Part shown: piece by piece, positions 6,918-48,926 of the stretch
Layout of the letters: every line of letters starts with the position of its first letter
Numbering within the stretch: the first letter of the stretch is position 1
DNA from: Cyanobacteria bacterium VAR_87_metabat_62
GTDB taxonomy: Bacteria > Cyanobacteriota > Cyanobacteriia > Cyanobacteriales > Microcoleaceae
Length of the DNA stretch: 64,000 nucleotides
NCBI GenBank assembly: GCA_031427135.1
Contig: JANPMV010000001.1
Span: 4 to 64,003 of the forward strand
Direction: 5' to 3'
Translations under genes and position numbers: made by a program
The notes under the pieces: model-generated
Told to the model about the DNA's origin: nothing
The model's input: the letters and a program-made list of their open reading frames with translations, nothing else
The model's database searches: none

Positions 6918-7010
6918 GACGAAGAAAGAAGGAAGAAGGAAAAAAGAAGAAGAAAGAACATTCATTTCTTACCTTTTTTAACTTTGGACTTGTTATCTTT
7001 GCCTTTGAAA

Positions 7011-7112
7011 GAAGTCAGGGAAGTTGAGAGTGATTGCTAGACCGTCAAAGGCTTGTCGAGAATACTGGACGAGTTTTAACGAGCTAGTTTTGACTCGTAA
7101 CTCCCTGACTTC
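7011..7112 (+). promoter_or_regulatory. long imperfect hairpin in the apcB-apcC spacer
   Basis: GAAGTCAGGGA(A)GTT... at 7011 pairs with ...AACTCCCTGACTTC ending at 7112. Confidence 0.5.
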
Positions 7113-7166
7113 AATCTTTTAAAAATCATCTAAAAATCTGTAAGCCTACTCAGGAGTTTGTGTCCC

Positions 7167-7370
7167 ATGAGAATGTTTAAAGTGACTGCTTGCGTCCCAA
7201 GTCAAACACGCATCCGCACTCAACGCGAATTGCAAAATACCTATTTTACTAAGTTGGTTCCCTACGACAACTGGTTCCGGGAACAACAAAGAATTATGAA
7301 AATGGGCGGCAGAATTATTAAAGTGCAACTGGCGACAGGTAAGCCTGGAGCTAATACTGGCCTACTGTAA
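7167..7370 (+). CDS. apcC: phycobilisome core linker Lc7.8
   Basis: 67 aa from the internal ATG: MRMFKVTACVPSQTRIRTQRELQNTYFTKLVPYDNWFREQQRI... typical ApcC. Confidence 0.95.
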   Translation: MRMFKVTACVPSQTRIRTQRELQNTYFTKLVPYDNWFREQQRIMKMGGRIIKVQLATGKPGANTGLL

Positions 7371-43685: not shown

Positions 43686-44636
43686 CTACGCTTGCTGTTG
43701 CATTTCCAGCAACTCAGGAATTGTCACAAACCGATATCCCTCTTTTTTCAAACCAGCAATCATCTCCGGTAAAGCTTTAATAGTCCGAGATCGATCGCCC
43801 CCGCCGTCGTGCATCAACACAATCGCACCCGGCTTCGCACCCTTCAACACATTCTCCACAAAGGCTTCCGGTTGAGCGCGCGGATCCGTATCGGCAGATG
43901 TTACAGACCACATCACAACTGAATAATTCTGCTCTTTAGCATACTTAGCTAAGCCATTATTCAATACTCCCCCCGGCGGGCGGAAAAAAGTTGTCTTAAC
44001 TCCCGTGGTTTCGTAAATAAGTCTTGCTGTGCGATCGATTTCATTAGCCGCCGTCGCCGCATCCATCACATCGTACGGGTGATGCCACGTATGATTGCCG
44101 ATCGCGTGACCTTCTGCCACAACTCGACGACCAATTTCAGGAGAACTTTCGAGAGATTTGCCTATCCAAAAAAATGTTGCTTTAACATCATTTTGCTTAA
44201 AAATATCCAGCATTTGTTCTGTAGTTTCCGGCCACGGCCCGTCATCAACTGTTAAAGCAATAACTTTCTGAGAATATTTGATTGTTCCTTCAAAAACAGT
44301 TGTTCCCTGAAACTGTTGCGGTGGCACAAAAGTCAAGCGTTTTTCCTTGGATTCCAACACGGTGAGCAGTTGTTCAACTGTGCGATCGAGATTAAACGCT
44401 GTTTTATTGTCTCCAACTTCCTTGACTGACGGATTTACCGCTAAAGATTGATTGAGGTTCTGCACCTGCACCGCTGCGGTTGCGGGGTTGTCGCTTCCCT
44501 GCTGGTTTCCTGGTAGCAGTATACCGATGATAAAACTAATCGCGGCTGCTGCAAGGGCGATCGCCGCAAAACGCCATTTTTTTCGCAGTCTTTGAAACAG
44601 ATGATTTCCGGTCACTTGAGATTCCTTTGACTCCAC
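43686..44636 (-). CDS. polysaccharide deacetylase (NodB homology domain), membrane-anchored
   Basis: TVDDGPWP and GNHTWHHP NodB motifs, N-terminal TM. Confidence 0.88.
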   Translation of the reverse strand: MESKESQVTGNHLFQRLRKKWRFAAIALAAAAISFIIGILLPGNQQGSDNPATAAVQVQNLNQSLAVNPSVKEVGDNKTAFNLDRTVEQLLTVLESKEKRLTFVPPQQFQGTTVFEGTIKYSQKVIALTVDDGPWPETTEQMLDIFKQNDVKATFFWIGKSLESSPEIGRRVVAEGHAIGNHTWHHPYDVMDAATAANEIDRTARLIYETTGVKTTFFRPPGGVLNNGLAKYAKEQNYSVVMWSVTSADTDPRAQPEAFVENVLKGAKPGAIVLMHDGGGDRSRTIKALPEMIAGLKKEGYRFVTIPELLEMQQQA

Positions 44637-44944: not shown

Positions 44945-44974
44945 TTGACAGTCTTGTAATACGTAATGTAGTAT
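44945..44974 (+). promoter_or_regulatory. strong sigma70-like promoter candidate upstream of the tRNA array
   Basis: TTGACA (44945-44950), 18 nt, TAGTAT (44969-44974), A-tract upstream. Paralogous copy at 55535-55563. Confidence 0.55.
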
Positions 44975-45186
44975 AAATGCATGGCGAAAGAGAAAAGCTT
45001 CAAAGCGTTACTCCAAAAGCAATATGAACTTTGAAAACAGAATAGATAATTAATCGTGTCACATACTTTTGGACATTGGCGGTGTAGACTCCGGCAACAA
45101 TAGCCCGATCGGGTTGTAGTACGCGGAATCAACCGCCAGTAGTCCTAACTTGAGTCATTCAAGGACAGAATATTTTTGATTTTCGC

Positions 45187-45260
45187 GGGGGTATAGCTCA
45201 ACCGGTCAGAGCAGTCGCCTGTCGAGCGAAAGGTTGCGAGTTCAACTCTCGTTACTCCCG
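45187..45260 (+). tRNA. tRNA-Asp(GTC)
   Basis: Acceptor GGGGGTA/TACTCCC, loop CTGTCGA, T-arm GCGAG-TTCAACT-CTCGT, G73. Confidence 0.85.
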
Positions 45261-45264
45261 TCAA

Positions 45265-45340
45265 AGTCCCGTAGGCAAATTGGTTTAAGCCGTCACCCTC
45301 TCTGGCGTGAAAATTACGAGTTCAAACCTCGTCGGGACTC
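45265..45340 (+). tRNA. tRNA-like, irregular anticodon arm (CTC, Glu-like)
   Basis: Acceptor AGTCCCG/CGGGACT and a good T-arm. The anticodon arm has one extra nt (TCACC-CTCTCTG-G[C]GTGA). Confidence 0.5.
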
Positions 45341-45343
45341 CCA

Positions 45344-45417
45344 GGTTAGATGGCCGAGTGGTTTAAGGCGTCGCTCTGCAAAAGCGATTTTCGTGAGTTC
45401 AAATCTCACTCTAACCT
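45344..45417 (+). tRNA. tRNA-Cys(GCA)
   Basis: Acceptor GGTTAGA/TCTAACC, loop CTGCAAA, U73. Confidence 0.8.
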
Positions 45418-45475
45418 TTGTTCCTATTAATTAATAGGAGCAATCTCAAATCTGAAACTTCAAATCAGATTATAT

Positions 45476-45571
45476 AGCAGCGTAGCTTAATGGTAAAGCC
45501 CCAAGTTCATGCCTTGGCAATTGCGAGTACCGCTTCGCGGAAGCAAGCTACAAGTCCCGCCACTGCTACCA
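45476..45571 (+). tRNA. tRNA(CAT) Met-type with an about 21-nt insert in the T-loop; CCA encoded
   Basis: Anticodon arm CCAAG-TTCATGC-CTTGG. T-stem GCGAG/CCCGC encloses 28 nt. The 3' end reads ...CACTGCT-A-CCA. Confidence 0.5.
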
Positions 45572-45574
45572 AAT

Positions 45575-45649
45575 ACAGGGATGATGTAACTGGCAACATC
45601 TCAGTCTCCAAAACTGATTTTCTGAGTTCAAATCTCAGTCCCTGTGCCA
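45575..45649 (+). tRNA. tRNA-Trp(CCA); CCA encoded
   Basis: Acceptor ACAGGGA/TCCCTGT (A1-U72), loop CTCCAAA, G73. Confidence 0.8.
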
Positions 45650-45655
45650 ATTTAT

Positions 45656-45732
45656 AGTGCTGTAGGCAAATGGTTTAAGCCGCTTGGTTTTCACCCAAGT
45701 GATTGCGGGTTCAACTCCCGTCAGCACTTCCA
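45656..45732 (+). tRNA. tRNA-Glu(TTC); CCA encoded
   Basis: Acceptor AGTGCTG/CAGCACT, arm CTTGG-TTTTCAC-CCAAG. Confidence 0.8.
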
Positions 45733-45740
45733 AAACTTCT

Positions 45741-45822
45741 GGGTTGGCCCTCCTACTGGCGTGGGTAGCTGTCTGTAAAACAGTAGCTTAAAGCGTTGCT
45801 GGTTCAATTCCAGCCCGACCCA
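45741..45822 (+). tRNA. tRNA-Tyr(GTA), long variable arm, irregular D-arm
   Basis: Acceptor GGGTTGG/CCGACCC, loop CTGTAAA, A73. Confidence 0.6.
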
Positions 45823-45962
45823 TTTGTAACTGTATTATGACTTACACAAAAAACCCGGTTTCTGAGAAAAATCTTGTATCTCTACGAGAGATATTTAGAT
45901 AGAAACCGGGTTTTTGACCCCCGTGGGTAAATCCTGTGTATTTCATATGCAGTTGCAATTTT

Positions 45963-46037
45963 GAGAATGAGTTGTAACTGGACAACAATTCAGTTTGCGT
46001 GACTGAACATTCGGGGGTTCAAATCCCTCCGTTCTCG
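45963..46037 (+). tRNA. tRNA-like (GCG, Arg-like), atypical loop TTGCGTG
   Basis: Acceptor GAGAATG/CGTTCTC, 6-bp anticodon stem TTCAGT/ACTGAA. Confidence 0.55.
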
Positions 46038-46041
46038 CTAT

Positions 46042-46128
46042 GGAGAAGTGGCCGAGTGGCTTAAGGCGCTTTCCTGCTAAGAAAGAGCGGTTTAACAACC
46101 GTCGTGGGTTCAAATCCCACCTTCTCCG
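46042..46128 (+). tRNA. tRNA-Ser(GCT)
   Basis: Class II. Acceptor GGAGAAG/CTTCTCC, loop CTGCTAA, G73. Confidence 0.85.
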
Positions 46129-46132
46129 TTTT

Positions 46133-46205
46133 CCCCCGATAGCTCAGTTGGTAGAGCGCTTGTTTGAAGAACAAGAAGTCGTCAGTTCGATACTGACTTG
46201 GGGGA
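46133..46205 (+). tRNA. tRNA-Phe(GAA) with C1-G72
   Basis: Acceptor CCCCCGA/TTGGGGG, arm CTTGT-TTGAAGA-ACAAG, A73. Confidence 0.75.
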
Positions 46206-46211
46206 TTGCGT

Positions 46212-46287
46212 TGCCTCATAGCTCAATTGGTAGAGCTGCACGCTGTTAACGTGATGGTTGTAGGTTCGAGTCCTACTGAGGCAGCCA
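46212..46287 (+). tRNA. tRNA-Asn(GTT); CCA encoded
   Basis: Acceptor TGCCTCA/TGAGGCA (U1-A72), loop CTGTTAA, G73. Confidence 0.85.
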
Positions 46288-46298
46288 TTTTACAAATT

Positions 46299-46371
46299 GC
46301 CGGGTGGACAAATTGGTAAAGTCGGATGCCTCTGAAACAGGAGTTTATCAGGGTAAGAGCCTACCCCGGCA
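46299..46371 (+). tRNA. tRNA-like/pseudo-tRNA (GAA-type loop, no TTC T-loop)
   Basis: Acceptor GCCGGGT/ACCC(C)GGC, weak anticodon stem, T-arm reduced to AGG-GTAAGAG-CCT. Confidence 0.4.
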
Positions 46372-46380
46372 TTCAATTAT

Positions 46381-46454
46381 TGGGAAGTCGCCTAATTGGT
46401 ATGGCACCGCTCTTTGAAAGCGGACAAATGCAGGTTCAAGCCCTGCCTTCCCAG
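46381..46454 (+). tRNA. tRNA-Gln(TTG)
   Basis: Acceptor TGGGAAG/CTTCCCA (U1-A72), arm CCGCT-CTTTGAA-AGCGG, G73. Confidence 0.85.
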
Positions 46455-46483
46455 TTTTGCTATCACCAAAGCAGATTAATTAT

Positions 46484-46560
46484 ACTCCTGTAGCCCAATT
46501 GGTAGAGGCCGCAATTTCAAAAATTGTGTTGTGTGAGTTCAAATCTCACCAGGAGTACCA
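46484..46560 (+). tRNA. class-I-shaped tRNA with Leu anticodon CAA; CCA encoded
   Basis: Acceptor ACTCCTG/CAGGAGT, loop TTCAAAA, 5-nt variable region, A73. Confidence 0.65.
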
Positions 46561-46583
46561 AATTTTCAATTAAGTTTCTACTT

Positions 46584-46658
46584 GCTCTTGTGGCGGAATT
46601 GGCATACGCGGCAGATTTAAAATTTGTTTTATTGTGAGTTCGAGTCTCACCAAGAGTA
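46584..46658 (+). tRNA. class-I-shaped tRNA with Leu anticodon TAA
   Basis: Leu-type D-arm GTGGCGGAATTGGCATACGCG, loop TTTAAAA, short variable region, A73. Confidence 0.65.
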
Positions 46659-46662
46659 TGAA

Positions 46663-46736
46663 CGGGATGTGGCGCAACTTGGTAGCGCGGCGGCTTTGGG
46701 AGCCGAAGGTTGCAGGTTCAAATCCTGCCATCCCGA
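46663..46736 (+). tRNA. tRNA-Pro(TGG)
   Basis: Acceptor CGGGATG/CATCCCG (C1-G72), loop TTTGGGA, A73. Confidence 0.88.
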
Positions 46737-46740
46737 CTTT

Positions 46741-46814
46741 ACCTCTATGATGCAATTAGTAGACATCTCTTGTTGAGTGCGAGAGTTTTGTTGGTGCAAG
46801 TCCAACTAGGGGTA
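46741..46814 (+). tRNA. tRNA-like with Leu anticodon GAG, loop TTGAGTG, T-loop TGCAAGT
   Basis: Acceptor ACCTCTA/TAGGGGT, 6-bp anticodon stem, A73. Confidence 0.5.
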
Positions 46815-46848
46815 TTGGGTATCAAAGCCCAAAAGTGCGATCGATTTT

Positions 46849-46922
46849 ACCCTTGTAGCCCAATTGGTAGAGGCGCTAGACTTAGGATCTAGTTAGTGCT
46901 GGTTCAAGTCCAGTCAGGGGTA
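46849..46922 (+). tRNA. class-I-shaped tRNA with Leu anticodon TAG
   Basis: Acceptor ACCCTTG/CAGGGGT, arm CTAGA-CTTAGGA-TCTAG, A73. Confidence 0.65.
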
Positions 46923-46933
46923 TTTGGTGATAG

Positions 46934-47012
46934 CGCGGGTGACGTAGCCACGGTAGGATTGGAGGTCTCATAAGCCTCTTCATAGCAGGTTCAACTCCTG
47001 TCCCCGCCACCA
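46934..47012 (+). tRNA. tRNA(CAT) Met-type with imperfect acceptor/D-arm; CCA encoded
   Basis: Loop CTCATAA, T-arm GCAGG-TTCAACT-CCTGT, 3' end CCCCGCC-A-CCA, 5' CGCGGGT giving a C1:C72 mismatch. Confidence 0.5.
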
Positions 47013-47017
47013 AAAAT

Positions 47018-47089
47018 GCAGGTGTAATGTAACTGGCAACATGAGGCTCTTGTAAAGCTTTCTTGCGAGTTCAAATCTCGCCATCTGCT
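47018..47089 (+). tRNA. tRNA-Thr(TGT)
   Basis: Acceptor GCAGGTG/CATCTGC, loop CTTGTAA. D-arm is identical to the Trp gene at 45575. Confidence 0.8.
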
Positions 47090-47150
47090 TATAACTAAGC
47101 TAGAGGTGTTATTTTTGTTAATGTTTTGCTAACGAATCAGAGAAAAAATC

Positions 47151-47990
47151 ATGAGACGGATTGCGATCGCTCAAGATACACTAAAGATCATTGAAGCAGG
47201 CTACTACTGCTCTCCAGAAGGTAAACGCATTGAACTTGTTCAAAAAATAGCATCCTGTCTTGAACAGACCAAATCCTATGAACCCGATGCTCTTTCTAAG
47301 CTCAAACAAGTTGTTCTTTCTGCTACTTCATCATTCTCAAATATTGAATTTGAAGTTAGGAATGAGACGACTTTGATGGGAGCAGAACGTATGGCAACAG
47401 GACAACAGTTTCAAAAGATTGGAGTCCTTAATTTTGCTTCCGCTAAAAATCCTGGTGGTGGATTTCTCAAAGGCGCACAAGCTCAAGAAGAGAGTTTAGC
47501 ACGCAGTTCTGCTCTTTACAAAAGTATTTTAAAATGTCGTGGTCATTATGAATTTCATCGCTCTTATAATTCGCTCCTGTATTCCGATCGGATGATCTAT
47601 TCACCTGATTGTCCTGTTTTCCGAAAAGATGATGGAACGCTATTAGAAACACCTTATCTTGTTGATTTCATCACAAGTCCGGCTCCTAATGCTGGCGAAG
47701 TTTGGAGAAAACAATCCCAGGATGCTGAAAAAATACGCGAAGTTCTATATGAACGCGGTGCAAAATTGTTGAGCCTAGCTATTTCTAATGGCTGTGATGC
47801 TCTAGTTTTAGGAGCTTGGGGATGTGGTGTATTTAGAAATAAACCATCAATGGTTGCTCAAGTGTTTGCAGATTTATTATTCCCTAATAGTCAATTTTCG
47901 GGAAGAATAAAAAACATCTTATTTTCTGTACTTGACTCTTCTGAACAAGCAAAAGTATTTGCGGAATTTTATACTAGATTTATTTTGTAG
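47151..47990 (+). CDS. bacterial-type poly(ADP-ribose) glycohydrolase-like macrodomain protein (DUF2263/TIGR02452-like)
   Basis: 279 aa. NFASAKNPGGGFLKGAQAQEESL contains the PARG signature GGG-X7-QEE. Embedded in the tRNA array. Confidence 0.8.
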   Translation: MRRIAIAQDTLKIIEAGYYCSPEGKRIELVQKIASCLEQTKSYEPDALSKLKQVVLSATSSFSNIEFEVRNETTLMGAERMATGQQFQKIGVLNFASAKNPGGGFLKGAQAQEESLARSSALYKSILKCRGHYEFHRSYNSLLYSDRMIYSPDCPVFRKDDGTLLETPYLVDFITSPAPNAGEVWRKQSQDAEKIREVLYERGAKLLSLAISNGCDALVLGAWGCGVFRNKPSMVAQVFADLLFPNSQFSGRIKNILFSVLDSSEQAKVFAEFYTRFIL

Positions 47991-48040
47991 CGACTTCATG
48001 TTGAGATTGAAAACATGAAATTGCTAACACCAGTTGAAAT

Positions 48041-48111
48041 GCGGATATGGTGCAACGGTAGCATCTGAGTCTTCCAAACTCGCGATACGGGTTCGAGTCC
48101 CGTTATCCGCT
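48041..48111 (+). tRNA. tRNA-Gly(TCC)
   Basis: Acceptor GCGGATA/TATCCGC, loop CTTCCAA, U73. Confidence 0.85.
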
Positions 48112-48122
48112 TGGCTAAAGAT

Positions 48123-48195
48123 GGGAGTGTAGCTCAATGGATAGAGCGCCGCGCTTCGGACGCGGATGTTGTGGGTTCGACTCCTACCACTCTCG
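48123..48195 (+). tRNA. tRNA-Arg(TCG)
   Basis: Acceptor GGGAGTG/CACTCTC, arm CCGCG-CTTCGGA-CGCGG. Confidence 0.85.
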
Positions 48196-48296
48196 TTGTT
48201 TTTGCTTGAATTTAAGGAGGTTGATTCCATTGAATGATTGATTTTTTATAGTAACCCCGATCGCCCTTTTGCGTGTCCCAATCTTTGGATCCTACA

Positions 48297-48320
48297 TACT
48301 TTAGTACGAGAGGAAAGGTA
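48297..48320 (+). ncRNA. hairpin carrying an exact copy of the 23S rRNA sarcin-ricin loop dodecamer
   Basis: ACTTT-AGTACGAGAGGA-AAGGT. The loop at 48303-48314 equals the universally conserved AGUACGAGAGGA. Confidence 0.6.
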
Positions 48321-48508
48321 ACGCTGTCAAAAAAACGGCGCGCGTTTGTAAACGAGGAGTGCATTGAACCCGATAGGTAGGCTTAAAAGTAGCCATCCTT
48401 TAAAGAGTGTGTAGCAACTCATCGGCGGAGTCCCTCTAGTAACTCAGAAAACGCAATGCTCTGATAACTTATACGCAAAGTGCGATCGTGCAAAGCAACC
48501 AACAATAC

Positions 48509-48582
48509 GGGAGTGTAACTCAACTGGACAGAGTGTCGAGCTTCTACCTCGAAAGTTGTGGGTTCGGGTCCTACCACTCCTG
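48509..48582 (+). tRNA. tRNA-Arg(TCT)
   Basis: Acceptor GGGAGTG/CACTCCT, arm TCGAG-CTTCTAC-CTCGA. Confidence 0.8.
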
Positions 48583-48588
48583 TTAAAT

Positions 48589-48665
48589 GGGTTCGTAGCT
48601 TAATTGGAAAAGCATCTAACAGGCTGTTAGAAAGATATCGGTTCAAATCCGATCGCAATCCACCA
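48589..48665 (+). tRNA. tRNA-Ala-like (GGC), loop CAGGCTG; CCA encoded
   Basis: G1-C72, G2-C71, G3:U70, A73, with an extra C in the 3' acceptor strand. Confidence 0.55.
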
Positions 48666-48670
48666 AATTT

Positions 48671-48747
48671 GGGTCTGTAGCTTAATTGGAAAAGCACCTA
48701 GTTCGCTGCTAGGAAAATGTCGGTTCGAGTCCGATCGCGATCCACCA
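48671..48747 (+). tRNA. tRNA-Ala-like (CGC), loop TTCGCTG; CCA encoded
   Basis: Paralogue of 48589, with G3:U70, A73 and the same bulged C. Confidence 0.55.
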
Positions 48748-48752
48748 AAAAC

Positions 48753-48825
48753 GGGGTCATAGCTCAATTGGTAGAGCGCTTGCCTTGCACGCAAGAGGTT
48801 AGGAGTTCAATTCTCCTTGATTCCA
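48753..48825 (+). tRNA. tRNA-Ala(TGC)
   Basis: Acceptor GGGGTCA/TGATTCC with G3:U70, loop CTTGCAC, A73. Confidence 0.88.
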
Positions 48826-48926
48826 TGCGGTGTCTGAAGTCGAAGCAGTAGTAGCACTCGTTATTTCAACTAGCGACGTACTCATTATCGTACTATATTG
48901 TTTAGTAAAGACTGAAAACACTACTA

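Follow-up and report, generated by a model that had tools for sequence, protein, structure and literature searches.

Leucine tRNA genes of the arm-less type I kind in a cyanobacterial long tRNA array

Four transfer RNA (tRNA) genes with the leucine anticodons CAA, UAA, GAG and UAG lie together at positions 46484 to 46922 of a 64,000-nucleotide stretch of Cyanobacteria bacterium VAR_87_metabat_62 (contig JANPMV010000001.1), and this whole stretch is called the window in the following. Judged from their sequences, the four genes are leucine isoacceptors of a horizontally spread tRNA array and belong to a conserved type I lineage, in which the variable region of tRNA-Leu is short and stands in place of the long variable arm. 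We put at about 0.72 the probability that three of the four genes (CAA, UAA and UAG) yield leucine-accepting type I tRNAs that are expressed from a stress-inducible array, and the GAG gene is probably impaired, defective or non-canonical. The window genes belong to an already known kind, the bacterial type I tRNA-Leu, and the cyanobacterial array has also been studied genetically. The wider pattern, in which the same kind of gene is usual as a solitary gene of Actinomycetota and common on phages and in arrays that were assigned to many phyla, looks under-described in the literature searched.

Structure of the four short leucine genes

Cloverleaves were parsed outward from the anticodon and the gene bodies are given as positions 1-73:

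46484..46557, + strand: type I tRNA-Leu(CAA), 74 nt, D region UAGCCCAAUUGGUAGAGGCC, variable loop GUUGU, A73; found by ARAGORN, Rfam and the cloverleaf parse
46584..46658, + strand: type I tRNA-Leu(UAA), 75 nt, D region UGGCGGAAUUGGCAUACGCG, variable loop UUUAUU, A73
46741..46814, + strand: aberrant tRNA-like gene with Leu(GAG) anticodon, 74 nt, variable loop GUUUU, A73; found by ARAGORN only
46849..46922, + strand: type I tRNA-Leu(UAG), 74 nt, D region UAGCCCAAUUGGUAGAGGCG, variable loop UUAGU, G37, A73

The corresponding ARAGORN spans, 46484-46560 (CAA), 46583-46659 (UAA), 46740-46815 (GAG) and 46848-46923 (UAG), are 76-77 nt long with flanking bases counted in. A CCA end is encoded in the CAA gene only, at 46558-46560. 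Each anticodon is of the leucine form, NAG or YAA in a 7-nt loop with U33.

A preliminary description of this stretch proposed four class I genes of 74-75 nt with A73 and variable regions of 5-6 nt, and named an overlooked long variable arm as a possible refutation. ARAGORN, the cloverleaf parse and Rfam bear out the class, the sizes and the short variable regions, and the parse bears out A73 in all four genes. The variable regions are 5, 6, 5 and 5 nt long in the CAA, UAA, GAG and UAG genes and form no stem, and neither the software folding nor the Rfam alignment gave a long arm: the CAA, UAA and UAG genes match the Rfam tRNA model over positions 1-71 of 71 without a long-arm insertion. A Leu-type D arm had been noticed in the UAA gene; it is indeed there, and it is not confined to that gene. 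All four genes have a 20-nt D region (position 8 to 26) of the class II tRNA-Leu kind, with a 3-bp stem, an unpaired position 13:22 and the loop AAUUGGNAGA, and the Rfam alignment also labels position 13:22 as non-paired in the Leu genes that it matched.

The leuT and leuW genes of E. coli were taken as class II comparators. The window genes share with them A73, the 20-nt D region with its 3-bp stem and the same loop, and U48; the D region of leuT is TGGCGGAATTGGTAGACGCG, to which the window UAA gene is identical at 18 of 20 positions. They differ in the variable region, which is a stem-loop of 13-15 nt in class II tRNA-Leu and 5-6 nt here, where a long arm is one of at least 10 nt. The CAA, UAA and UAG genes carry the full E. 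coli-type leucine identity set, which consists of A73, A15:U48, G18G19, A20a, U8:A14, U54:A58, G18:U55 and G19:C56 (PMC9976931, PMC6614811).

Chromosomal cyanobacterial tRNA-Leu(UAA) carries a group I intron (refs 82-83 in PMC8450103), and the window Leu(UAA) gene is, unlike it, intron-free, as the preliminary description had supposed. Its anticodon loop UUUAAAA is continuous, its anticodon stem contains two G.U pairs, and no group I intron was found between 44 and 58 kb, since tRNA alone attained an Rfam gathering score there. At 46628-46690, from the end of Leu(UAA) into the neighbouring tRNA-Pro(UGG) gene, there is a weak match to the Y RNA-like family YrlA (26 bits, below the gathering score of 69), which is most likely mere tRNA-like similarity.

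The GAG gene stands apart. In the parse it has A18 for G18, a T loop UGCAAGU with G55, and U37, which is atypical; both partners of the universal G18:U55 tertiary pair are altered, and Rfam gave no tRNA match for the gene, whether the cutoff was the gathering score or E<=1. The copy of Microcoleus sp. herbarium12 (locus L231, about 7095-7168) matches it at 97% identity and has the same three oddities, and the two differ only by an anticodon-stem change of G.U to A-U and by one T-loop base. These changes may reflect a tolerated co-variation at the elbow or shared decay. The GAG gene of the Anabaena array introduced below has a broken T stem in the parse.

Conservation and kinship of the arm-less lineage

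The tRNA-Pro(UGG) gene between the Leu genes (46663..46736, + strand; ARAGORN, Rfam) is the most conserved gene of such arrays and was used as an anchor for finding related ones. Leu genes were parsed in 11 arrays, ten of them cyanobacterial (the window and nine plasmid arrays, including that of Anabaena plasmid pCC7120delta) and one from a Mycobacterium plasmid. All 31 Leu-anticodon genes parsed have variable regions of 5-6 nt, A73, U48 as the last variable position, A14A15 and a Leu-type D region of 20 nt or nearly so, made up of a 3-bp stem and an AAYUGGNAGA loop. A Pseudarthrobacter plasmid array has one short CAA gene with the same features together with two class II Leu genes. Similarity to Pro(UGG) was rejected as a marker of a short-Leu array, since a Variovorax plasmid array holds class II Leu genes only; the trait is thus not universal in long tRNA arrays. 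Further matches on Tsukamurella, Persicobacter, Bacillus and Sphingopyxis plasmids had no array or no Leu gene.

The cloverleaf of the short Leu genes is under selection. In an alignment of 29 distinct array sequences, 98.4% of the cells of a class I cloverleaf are paired, and 18 of 20 base pairs have changed on both sides. None of 500 shuffles reached any of the measures, a control that overstates significance because the sequences are related; structures slid along the alignment pair in 36-44% of cells, and this second control and the count of double changes are unaffected by the relatedness. The T stem of the window CAA gene, for example, is wholly different from that of the ~90%-identical Microcoleus relative and yet fully compensated. 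In the UAA ortholog of Microcoleus the variable region is 12 nt long (TCTATTTTGATT; UCUAUUUUGAUU, locus L231 about 6930-6945), against TTTATT (46625-46630) in the window. The idea that it is the remnant of a long arm caught in mid-loss was rejected, since the Nostoc outgroup copy has 6 nt; an insertion is more likely, because of that outgroup and because the 12-mer resembles a tandem duplication of a 6-mer. The variable loop's length is evidently labile in this short-Leu lineage.

Wider scans used a search pattern in which a Leu-type D arm and an NAR anticodon are followed, after a short interval, by the T loop. Of the 31 short Leu genes this pattern matched 22, and of 294 other tRNAs it matched none. 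In IMG/VR the pattern was found on at least 120 viral contigs, whose loci contain 166 short and 27 long Leu genes by ARAGORN, and in species-representative genomes there were at least 120 matches, with 125 short and 34 long Leu genes; these numbers describe the matches listed and are not frequencies of type I and type II genes. The same scope holds for the following results. The length of the Leu variable region in the scanned loci is bimodal (4-7 versus 10-19 nt), and the Ser and Tyr genes of the same loci are, with rare exceptions, long-armed. In the species-representative genomes, 80 of the 118 loci with an ARAGORN tRNA have a single tRNA within 8 kb, and all but one of these solitary genes belong, by record title, to Actinomycetota (Nocardia, Mycobacterium, Gordonia, Corynebacterium, Rhodococcus, Amycolatopsis, Pseudarthrobacter, Rothia, Bifidobacterium, a Streptomyces and others). 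They mostly have UAA, CAA or UAG anticodons, and their D region, UAGCCCAAYUGGCAGAGGCA, is nearly equal to that of the window CAA and UAG genes. The short Leu genes of other phyla sit in loci with at least two tRNA genes: in arrays of 10-34 genes in Acidobacteriota, Polyangia, Lachnospiraceae and Cyanobacteria, and in clusters of 2-9 genes in Planctomycetota, Bacteroidota and a Melainabacteria-type metagenome-assembled genome (MAG). Such clusters and arrays were assigned to at least seven phyla beyond Actinomycetota. Over 316 short Leu genes, A73 is present in 314, U48 in 311 and A14A15 in 310. The pattern demands a Leu-type D loop, so that conservation of the D loop is partly built in for the genes selected by it; array genes, and neighbours from the same loci that were not selected, are free of this bias.

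The first base pair, 1:72, shows a side pattern. In the 29 array Leu genes it is G.U in 14, A-U in 13 and G-C in 2. U72 is found in nearly all of the cyanobacterial array copies, in an A1-U72 or G1.U72 pair, and G1-C72 in most of the solitary genes of actinobacteria. An A1-U72 start is also found in other array isotypes (Val, Glu).

Isotype kinship was examined with a covariance model, R1, built from 40 distinct solitary chromosomal type I Leu genes and from no cyanobacterial or array sequence. It was scored at every position of 44-58 kb; its E-values are rough and its ranking by bit score is sound. The scores, with those of the general Rfam tRNA model, are:

Leu(UAG): R1 78.7 bits; Rfam general tRNA 60.8 bits
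Leu(CAA): R1 77.2 bits; Rfam general tRNA 54.6 bits
Leu(UAA): R1 62.9 bits; Rfam general tRNA 54.3 bits
Asn: R1 55.9 bits; Rfam general tRNA 67.1 bits
Phe: R1 55.7 bits; Rfam general tRNA 65.8 bits
Ala(UGC): R1 52.3 bits; Rfam general tRNA 72 bits
Leu(GAG): R1 48.1 bits; Rfam general tRNA no match

The UAG, CAA and UAA genes are thus the top three of the window array on R1, the best non-Leu gene being Asn, and the general model reverses the order, placing Asn, Phe and Ala above them. The GAG gene comes eighth in the array, and its lineage in 11 other arrays scores 54-56 bits. In those 11 arrays the 22 best R1 matches are all short Leu genes. The nearest neighbours point the same way: in a pool of about 1,700 class I tRNAs, which is enriched for short Leu genes by sampling and in which the non-Leu tRNAs of the same loci number well above a thousand, the closest relatives of each window Leu gene are always short Leu genes (identity 0.77-0.97), against 0.65-0.72 for the best non-Leu tRNA. 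The window CAA gene has orthologs in 8 arrays at 0.77-0.84 identity. Whole-body identity was rejected as a discriminator of isotypes, which it separates poorly (group means, with anticodon and variable region masked, of 0.60 for Val, 0.58 for Thr and 0.56 for class II Leu); D-arm architecture and the covariance model are more informative.

The preliminary description left a choice between Leu isoacceptors that lost the arm, as in organelles, and anticodon-switched derivatives of other tRNAs. The Leu-type D arm, A73, A15/U48, the covariation, the nearest neighbours and, for the CAA, UAA and UAG genes, R1 all support genuine arm-less Leu isoacceptors. The organelle analogy holds for structure only. 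In animal mitochondrial tRNA-Leu the variable loop is likewise short, and its identity elements include A73 and A14 (PMC9976931). Mitochondrial tRNAs differ in that their cores are reduced or unstable and a leucyl-tRNA synthetase (LeuRS) of their own serves them, and the window genes have the full canonical elements of the D and T loops. No link to organellar tRNA-Leu turned up, and among the relatives found the nearest are genes of bacteria and phages. The type I Leu lineage may go back to an old arm deletion in a class II Leu tRNA or to an old recruitment of a class I tRNA.

Streptomyces coelicolor provides the closest published counterpart, a type I tRNA-Leu(CAA) (Fan, Huang, Ji and Wang 2019, NAR 47:6369, PMC6614811) that resembles the window genes in its Leu anticodon, 5-nt variable loop and canonical D and T loops; U8:A14 was reported to be important, and class II tRNA-Leu and a single LeuRS coexist with it. 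Compared by the published description, the solitary actinobacterial genes are of the S. coelicolor kind, and it is the model built from them that ranks the window genes highest. The setting differs: S. coelicolor has one chromosomal gene that reads UUG, while in the window all Leu isoacceptors are type I and belong to an accessory, horizontally spread and probably repressed array. That bacterial tRNA-Leu is normally class II, as the preliminary description put it, holds as a rule, with S. coelicolor as a published exception and with many unpublished-looking ones here. A 2023 review places the long arm on tRNA-Leu everywhere save in animal mitochondria (PMC9976931), and the sole biochemical study of the bacterial type calls type I tRNA-Leu rare (PMC6614811). 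Leu variable loops of 5-18 nt are listed, with no remark on them, in a survey of cyanobacterial tRNAs (PMC6933170), and a study of Mycobacterium tuberculosis implies long loops in just 3 of 5 tRNA-Leu (PMC11541572). In the literature searched, the term "type I tRNA-Leu" was found in Fan et al. only, and the main texts of the array papers (PMC8421152, PMC10272220) do not mention tRNA-Leu or variable arms.

The array, its promoter and its neighbours

The Leu genes belong to a long tRNA array (L-array), a term that Tran et al. 2016 (PMC4758250) define by 20 or more tRNA genes packed at 2 or more per kb. Its dense core at 45186-48825 holds 21 ARAGORN genes in 3.6 kb, and 27 genes are counted up to 56487. 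The main features are:

45186..56487, + strand: long tRNA array of the trn-operon type, 27 ARAGORN genes with degenerate copies and embedded open reading frames (ORFs)
44945..44974, + strand: predicted array promoter TTGACA-N18-TAGTAT, unique in the window, with 0 expected by chance
46041..46129, + strand: tRNA-Ser(GCU), 89 nt, with a long variable arm
47151-47990, within the array: gene with a microbial PARG-type catalytic domain (E = 9e-50)
48927-49760, within the array: HNH-like ORF, a weak match (E = 5.6e-4, 20.4 bits against a Pfam cutoff of 21.4)
50410-50982, within the array: gene for a RibD_C/DHFR-like protein
51902-53170, within the array: ORF without a Pfam match
54429-55391, within the array: GNAT acetyltransferase gene
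43686-44636, - strand: polysaccharide deacetylase gene adjoining the array

The trn operon, or L-array, of plasmid delta (pCC7120delta) of Anabaena sp. PCC 7120 was reportedly described by Puerto-Galan and Vioque in 2012. The window array is homologous to it and resembles it in gene order, in a promoter with TGTAGTAT and in the short Leu(CAA/UAG/GAG/UAA) genes, and the order Gln-Leu(CAA)-...-Pro-Leu-...-Thr-Gly-Arg-Ala is common to the window, pCC7120delta and other cyanobacterial arrays. Related plasmid arrays occur in Nostoc/Anabaena PCC 7120, Nostoc C052, HK-01, TCL26-01, CENA543 and PCC 7524, in two Calothrix strains and in Kovacikia. Unlike the Anabaena operon, the window array adjoins chromosomal-type genes (polysaccharide deacetylase, biotin ligase), is rearranged so that UAA comes before Pro, has no Lys, Met, Val or His gene in its core and is broken up by the PARG-like, HNH-like, RibD_C-like and GNAT ORFs. 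Across the polysaccharide deacetylase gene and the array, the window is syntenic with a contig of Microcoleus sp. herbarium12 at about 90% identity, and its source is therefore taken to be a Microcoleus-like cyanobacterium.

The predicted promoter lies about 210 nt upstream of the first tRNA (45186), and this stretch aligns with the Anabaena trn promoter (locus L001, 3125-3170). The site TGTAGTAT overlaps the predicted -10 box and has TGTAnTAY repeats on both flanks; of the five TGTAGTAY sites of the window, three (44787, 44967 and 45115) fall in the roughly 400 nt upstream of the array. In Anabaena, TGTAGTAT is the footprinted site of the repressor TrcR (PMC10272220, which also gives the -10 box), and the trn operon of Anabaena PCC 7120 is induced by translational stress (PMC8421152). 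The window promoter is, by alignment, homologous to the TrcR-repressed Anabaena promoter, and its TrcR site is putative. Since promoter and operator sequence are conserved, the Anabaena design of regulation, normally silent and induced by translational stress, is probably kept.

The arm is missing from the Leu genes and not from Ser: the class II architecture is retained in the Ser(GCU) gene and in the remaining Ser genes of the window array at 49861, 51030 and 51353, which are 83-85 nt long. Several other genes of the array are irregular. At 45265-45343 ARAGORN finds a tRNA with a four-base anticodon (CUCU) in an enlarged anticodon loop. Since tRNA-Glu(CUC) occupies this place in other arrays, the gene may be a degenerate Glu copy, or else a frameshift-suppressor-like tRNA. 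The tRNA-Arg gene at 45963-46038 has the anticodon GCG where related arrays have Arg(ACG), and it is below the Rfam tRNA gathering score. Near the end of several arrays there is an odd tRNA-like gene (window 56417-56487; locus L003, 3210-3282; locus L010, 7358-7430) with the acceptor stem UACAUAC...GUAUGAA, C or U at position 73 and the anticodon CUU in the window and Nostoc HK-01 or CAU in Kovacikia. Degenerate tRNA-like copies that ARAGORN misses lie at 45476-45568, 45741-45822, 46298-46372, 46938-47009 and 49949-50020. The first was considered as a class II Tyr gene and this was rejected, as the gene is Met(CAU)-like and its T arm is disrupted by an insertion; the remaining four reach no more than 17-29 bits on the tRNA-Leu model.

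Among the embedded genes, the PARG-like protein is found with identical sequence on six metagenome contigs. A polysaccharide deacetylase gene also adjoins the arrays of Microcoleus (locus L231), of a Nostoc MAG and of the Cylindrospermum NIES-4074 chromosome (loci L162 and L249), and no HNH homing endonuclease gene lies directly upstream of the window array. The recurrence of the deacetylase neighbour suggests a conserved chromosomal insertion context, unlike that of the plasmid arrays with their upstream HNH gene.

Charging, alternative explanations and meaning

The following course of events would fit these data. A TrcR-repressed promoter would transcribe the array upon impaired translation, the precursors would be processed, and the CAA, UAA and UAG tRNAs would be leucylated by the host LeuRS, after which the charged array tRNAs may supplement or replace the housekeeping class II tRNA-Leu pool. 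The lineage retains elements known to be read by bacterial LeuRS, which are A73, U8:A14, the A15:U48 Levitt pair, G18G19 with A20a in a Leu-type D loop, and the canonical T loop. Bacterial tyrosyl-tRNA synthetase (TyrRS) contacts the long variable arm. Seryl-tRNA synthetase (SerRS) depends on it (PMC7609411), and E. coli LeuRS needs neither the anticodon nor the long arm and still charges minimal substrates that have no arm (PMC9976931, PMC6614811). These differences between the three enzymes would explain why only the Leu arm was lost in these loci. The type I tRNA-Leu(CAA) of S. coelicolor is charged by its own LeuRS and by human mitochondrial LeuRS, and a knockout of its gene was not obtained (PMC6614811). 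In Anabaena, 23 of the 26 tRNAs of the trn operon were detected, only after induction, and they are aminoacylated in vivo and present in polysomes (PMC8421152). Because four of the operon's genes are short Leu genes and the T stem of its GAG gene is broken, at least one Anabaena short Leu tRNA should be charged, and probably three.

Several points weigh against leucine charging of the window tRNAs. The type I tRNA-Leu(CAA) of S. coelicolor is left uncharged by E. coli LeuRS and requires the LSD region of the Streptomyces enzyme (ScoLeuRS) (PMC6614811), so that a cyanobacterial LeuRS need not charge the window tRNAs. For the Anabaena operonic tRNAs, the main text of PMC8421152 identifies neither the attached amino acid nor the three genes that gave no signal. 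The window UAA gene has a U after A20a and a weak anticodon stem, and the GAG gene is without G18 and U55 and has U37. The body identity to class II Leu (0.56-0.71) is not above that to several other isotypes, among which array Val(UAC) reaches 0.79.

This last point touches on the possibility that the genes are anticodon-switched class I derivatives, for instance of Val(UAC), which is one base from UAG and UAA, and that they would be mischarged or uncharged, with mistranslation of Leu codons or no effect as the outcome. The array Val(UAC) gene is the closest non-Leu body because it has the same acceptor-stem type (ANCCCUG...CAGGGNU-A73), and A73 is used by both Val and Leu. However, the D region of Val is 19 nt long with a 4-bp stem, against the 20-nt Leu-type region of the Leu genes, Val scores 55-57 bits on R1 against 65-79 for the Leu genes (62.9 for the window UAA gene), and valyl-tRNA synthetase (ValRS) requires C36 (PMC9976931), which is not present in these genes. 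As no non-Leu tRNA of the pool comes closer than 0.72 to the window genes and short Leu relatives reach 0.77-0.97, a recent switch from another isotype is, by this comparison and the R1 ranking, excluded for CAA, UAA and UAG; any switch would be ancient and the lineage since kept as Leu-anticodon tRNAs, because all five Leu anticodon types seen have the trait across phyla. A switched identity is thus very improbable. It is also quite unlikely that the genes are decaying pseudogenes of a cryptic, horizontally acquired array that gives no stable tRNAs in the host. The failure of the GAG gene on Rfam, the ORFs and degenerate tRNA copies that break up the array, the 3 of 26 Anabaena genes without signal (PMC8421152) and the long-held view of L-arrays as cryptic all fit such decay. 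Set against it are the complete cloverleaves of the CAA, UAA and UAG genes with all universal tertiary positions, the compensated stem changes relative to the Microcoleus orthologs, such as those of the whole CAA T stem, and the intact promoter and operator.

Another option, which we hold to be unlikely, is that the array tRNAs act mainly outside decoding: as decoys or sponges they would draw off stress-induced toxins that cleave or modify tRNA, or they would supply tRNA fragments. Their amino acid identity would then matter little, arm loss would be tolerated or even useful, and charging efficiency would not be selected. A sponge role was proposed for the Anabaena operon, whose anticodons mismatch the codon usage of stress genes and whose tRNAs are cleaved (Santamaria-Gomez et al. 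2021, PMC8421152), and the degenerate tRNA-like copies and the aberrant GAG gene of the window array would be in keeping with it. Yet the near-invariance of A73, A15/U48 and the Leu-type D loop in the 316 genes and the covariation of all four stems amount to a constraint that exceeds the needs of a decoy. The aminoacylation of the Anabaena operonic tRNAs and their presence in polysomes also speak against this option, as does the occurrence of the same family as a solitary chromosomal gene in actinobacteria.

A further suggestion concerns why the arm was lost, and we regard it as a long shot. The loss of the arm in the tRNA-Leu of phages, plasmids and L-arrays may be adaptive, as an escape from host or competitor factors that grip the long variable arm; the toxin MenT3, for example, is anchored by the long variable loop (PMC11541572). 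The arm-less tRNAs would still be charged, since LeuRS does not need the arm. If this were true, the array would be a toxin-resistant leucine-decoding set for times of translational stress or infection, and the common TAGCCCAAYUGG D arm would point to an actinobacterial or actinophage origin of its Leu genes.

The arm-less lineage is found in three settings: as the usual solitary gene of many Actinomycetota, as the sole Leu type in the cyanobacterial L-arrays examined, and on numerous viral contigs. The Anabaena operon is genetically tractable and inducible and has four such genes, which makes it a system for asking directly if type I tRNA-Leu is charged by an ordinary bacterial LeuRS other than that of Streptomyces, and also why mobile elements favour the arm-less form. 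For the annotation of bacterial genomes, the missing arm alone is no ground for flagging a tRNA-Leu gene as a pseudogene or as an isotype conflict.

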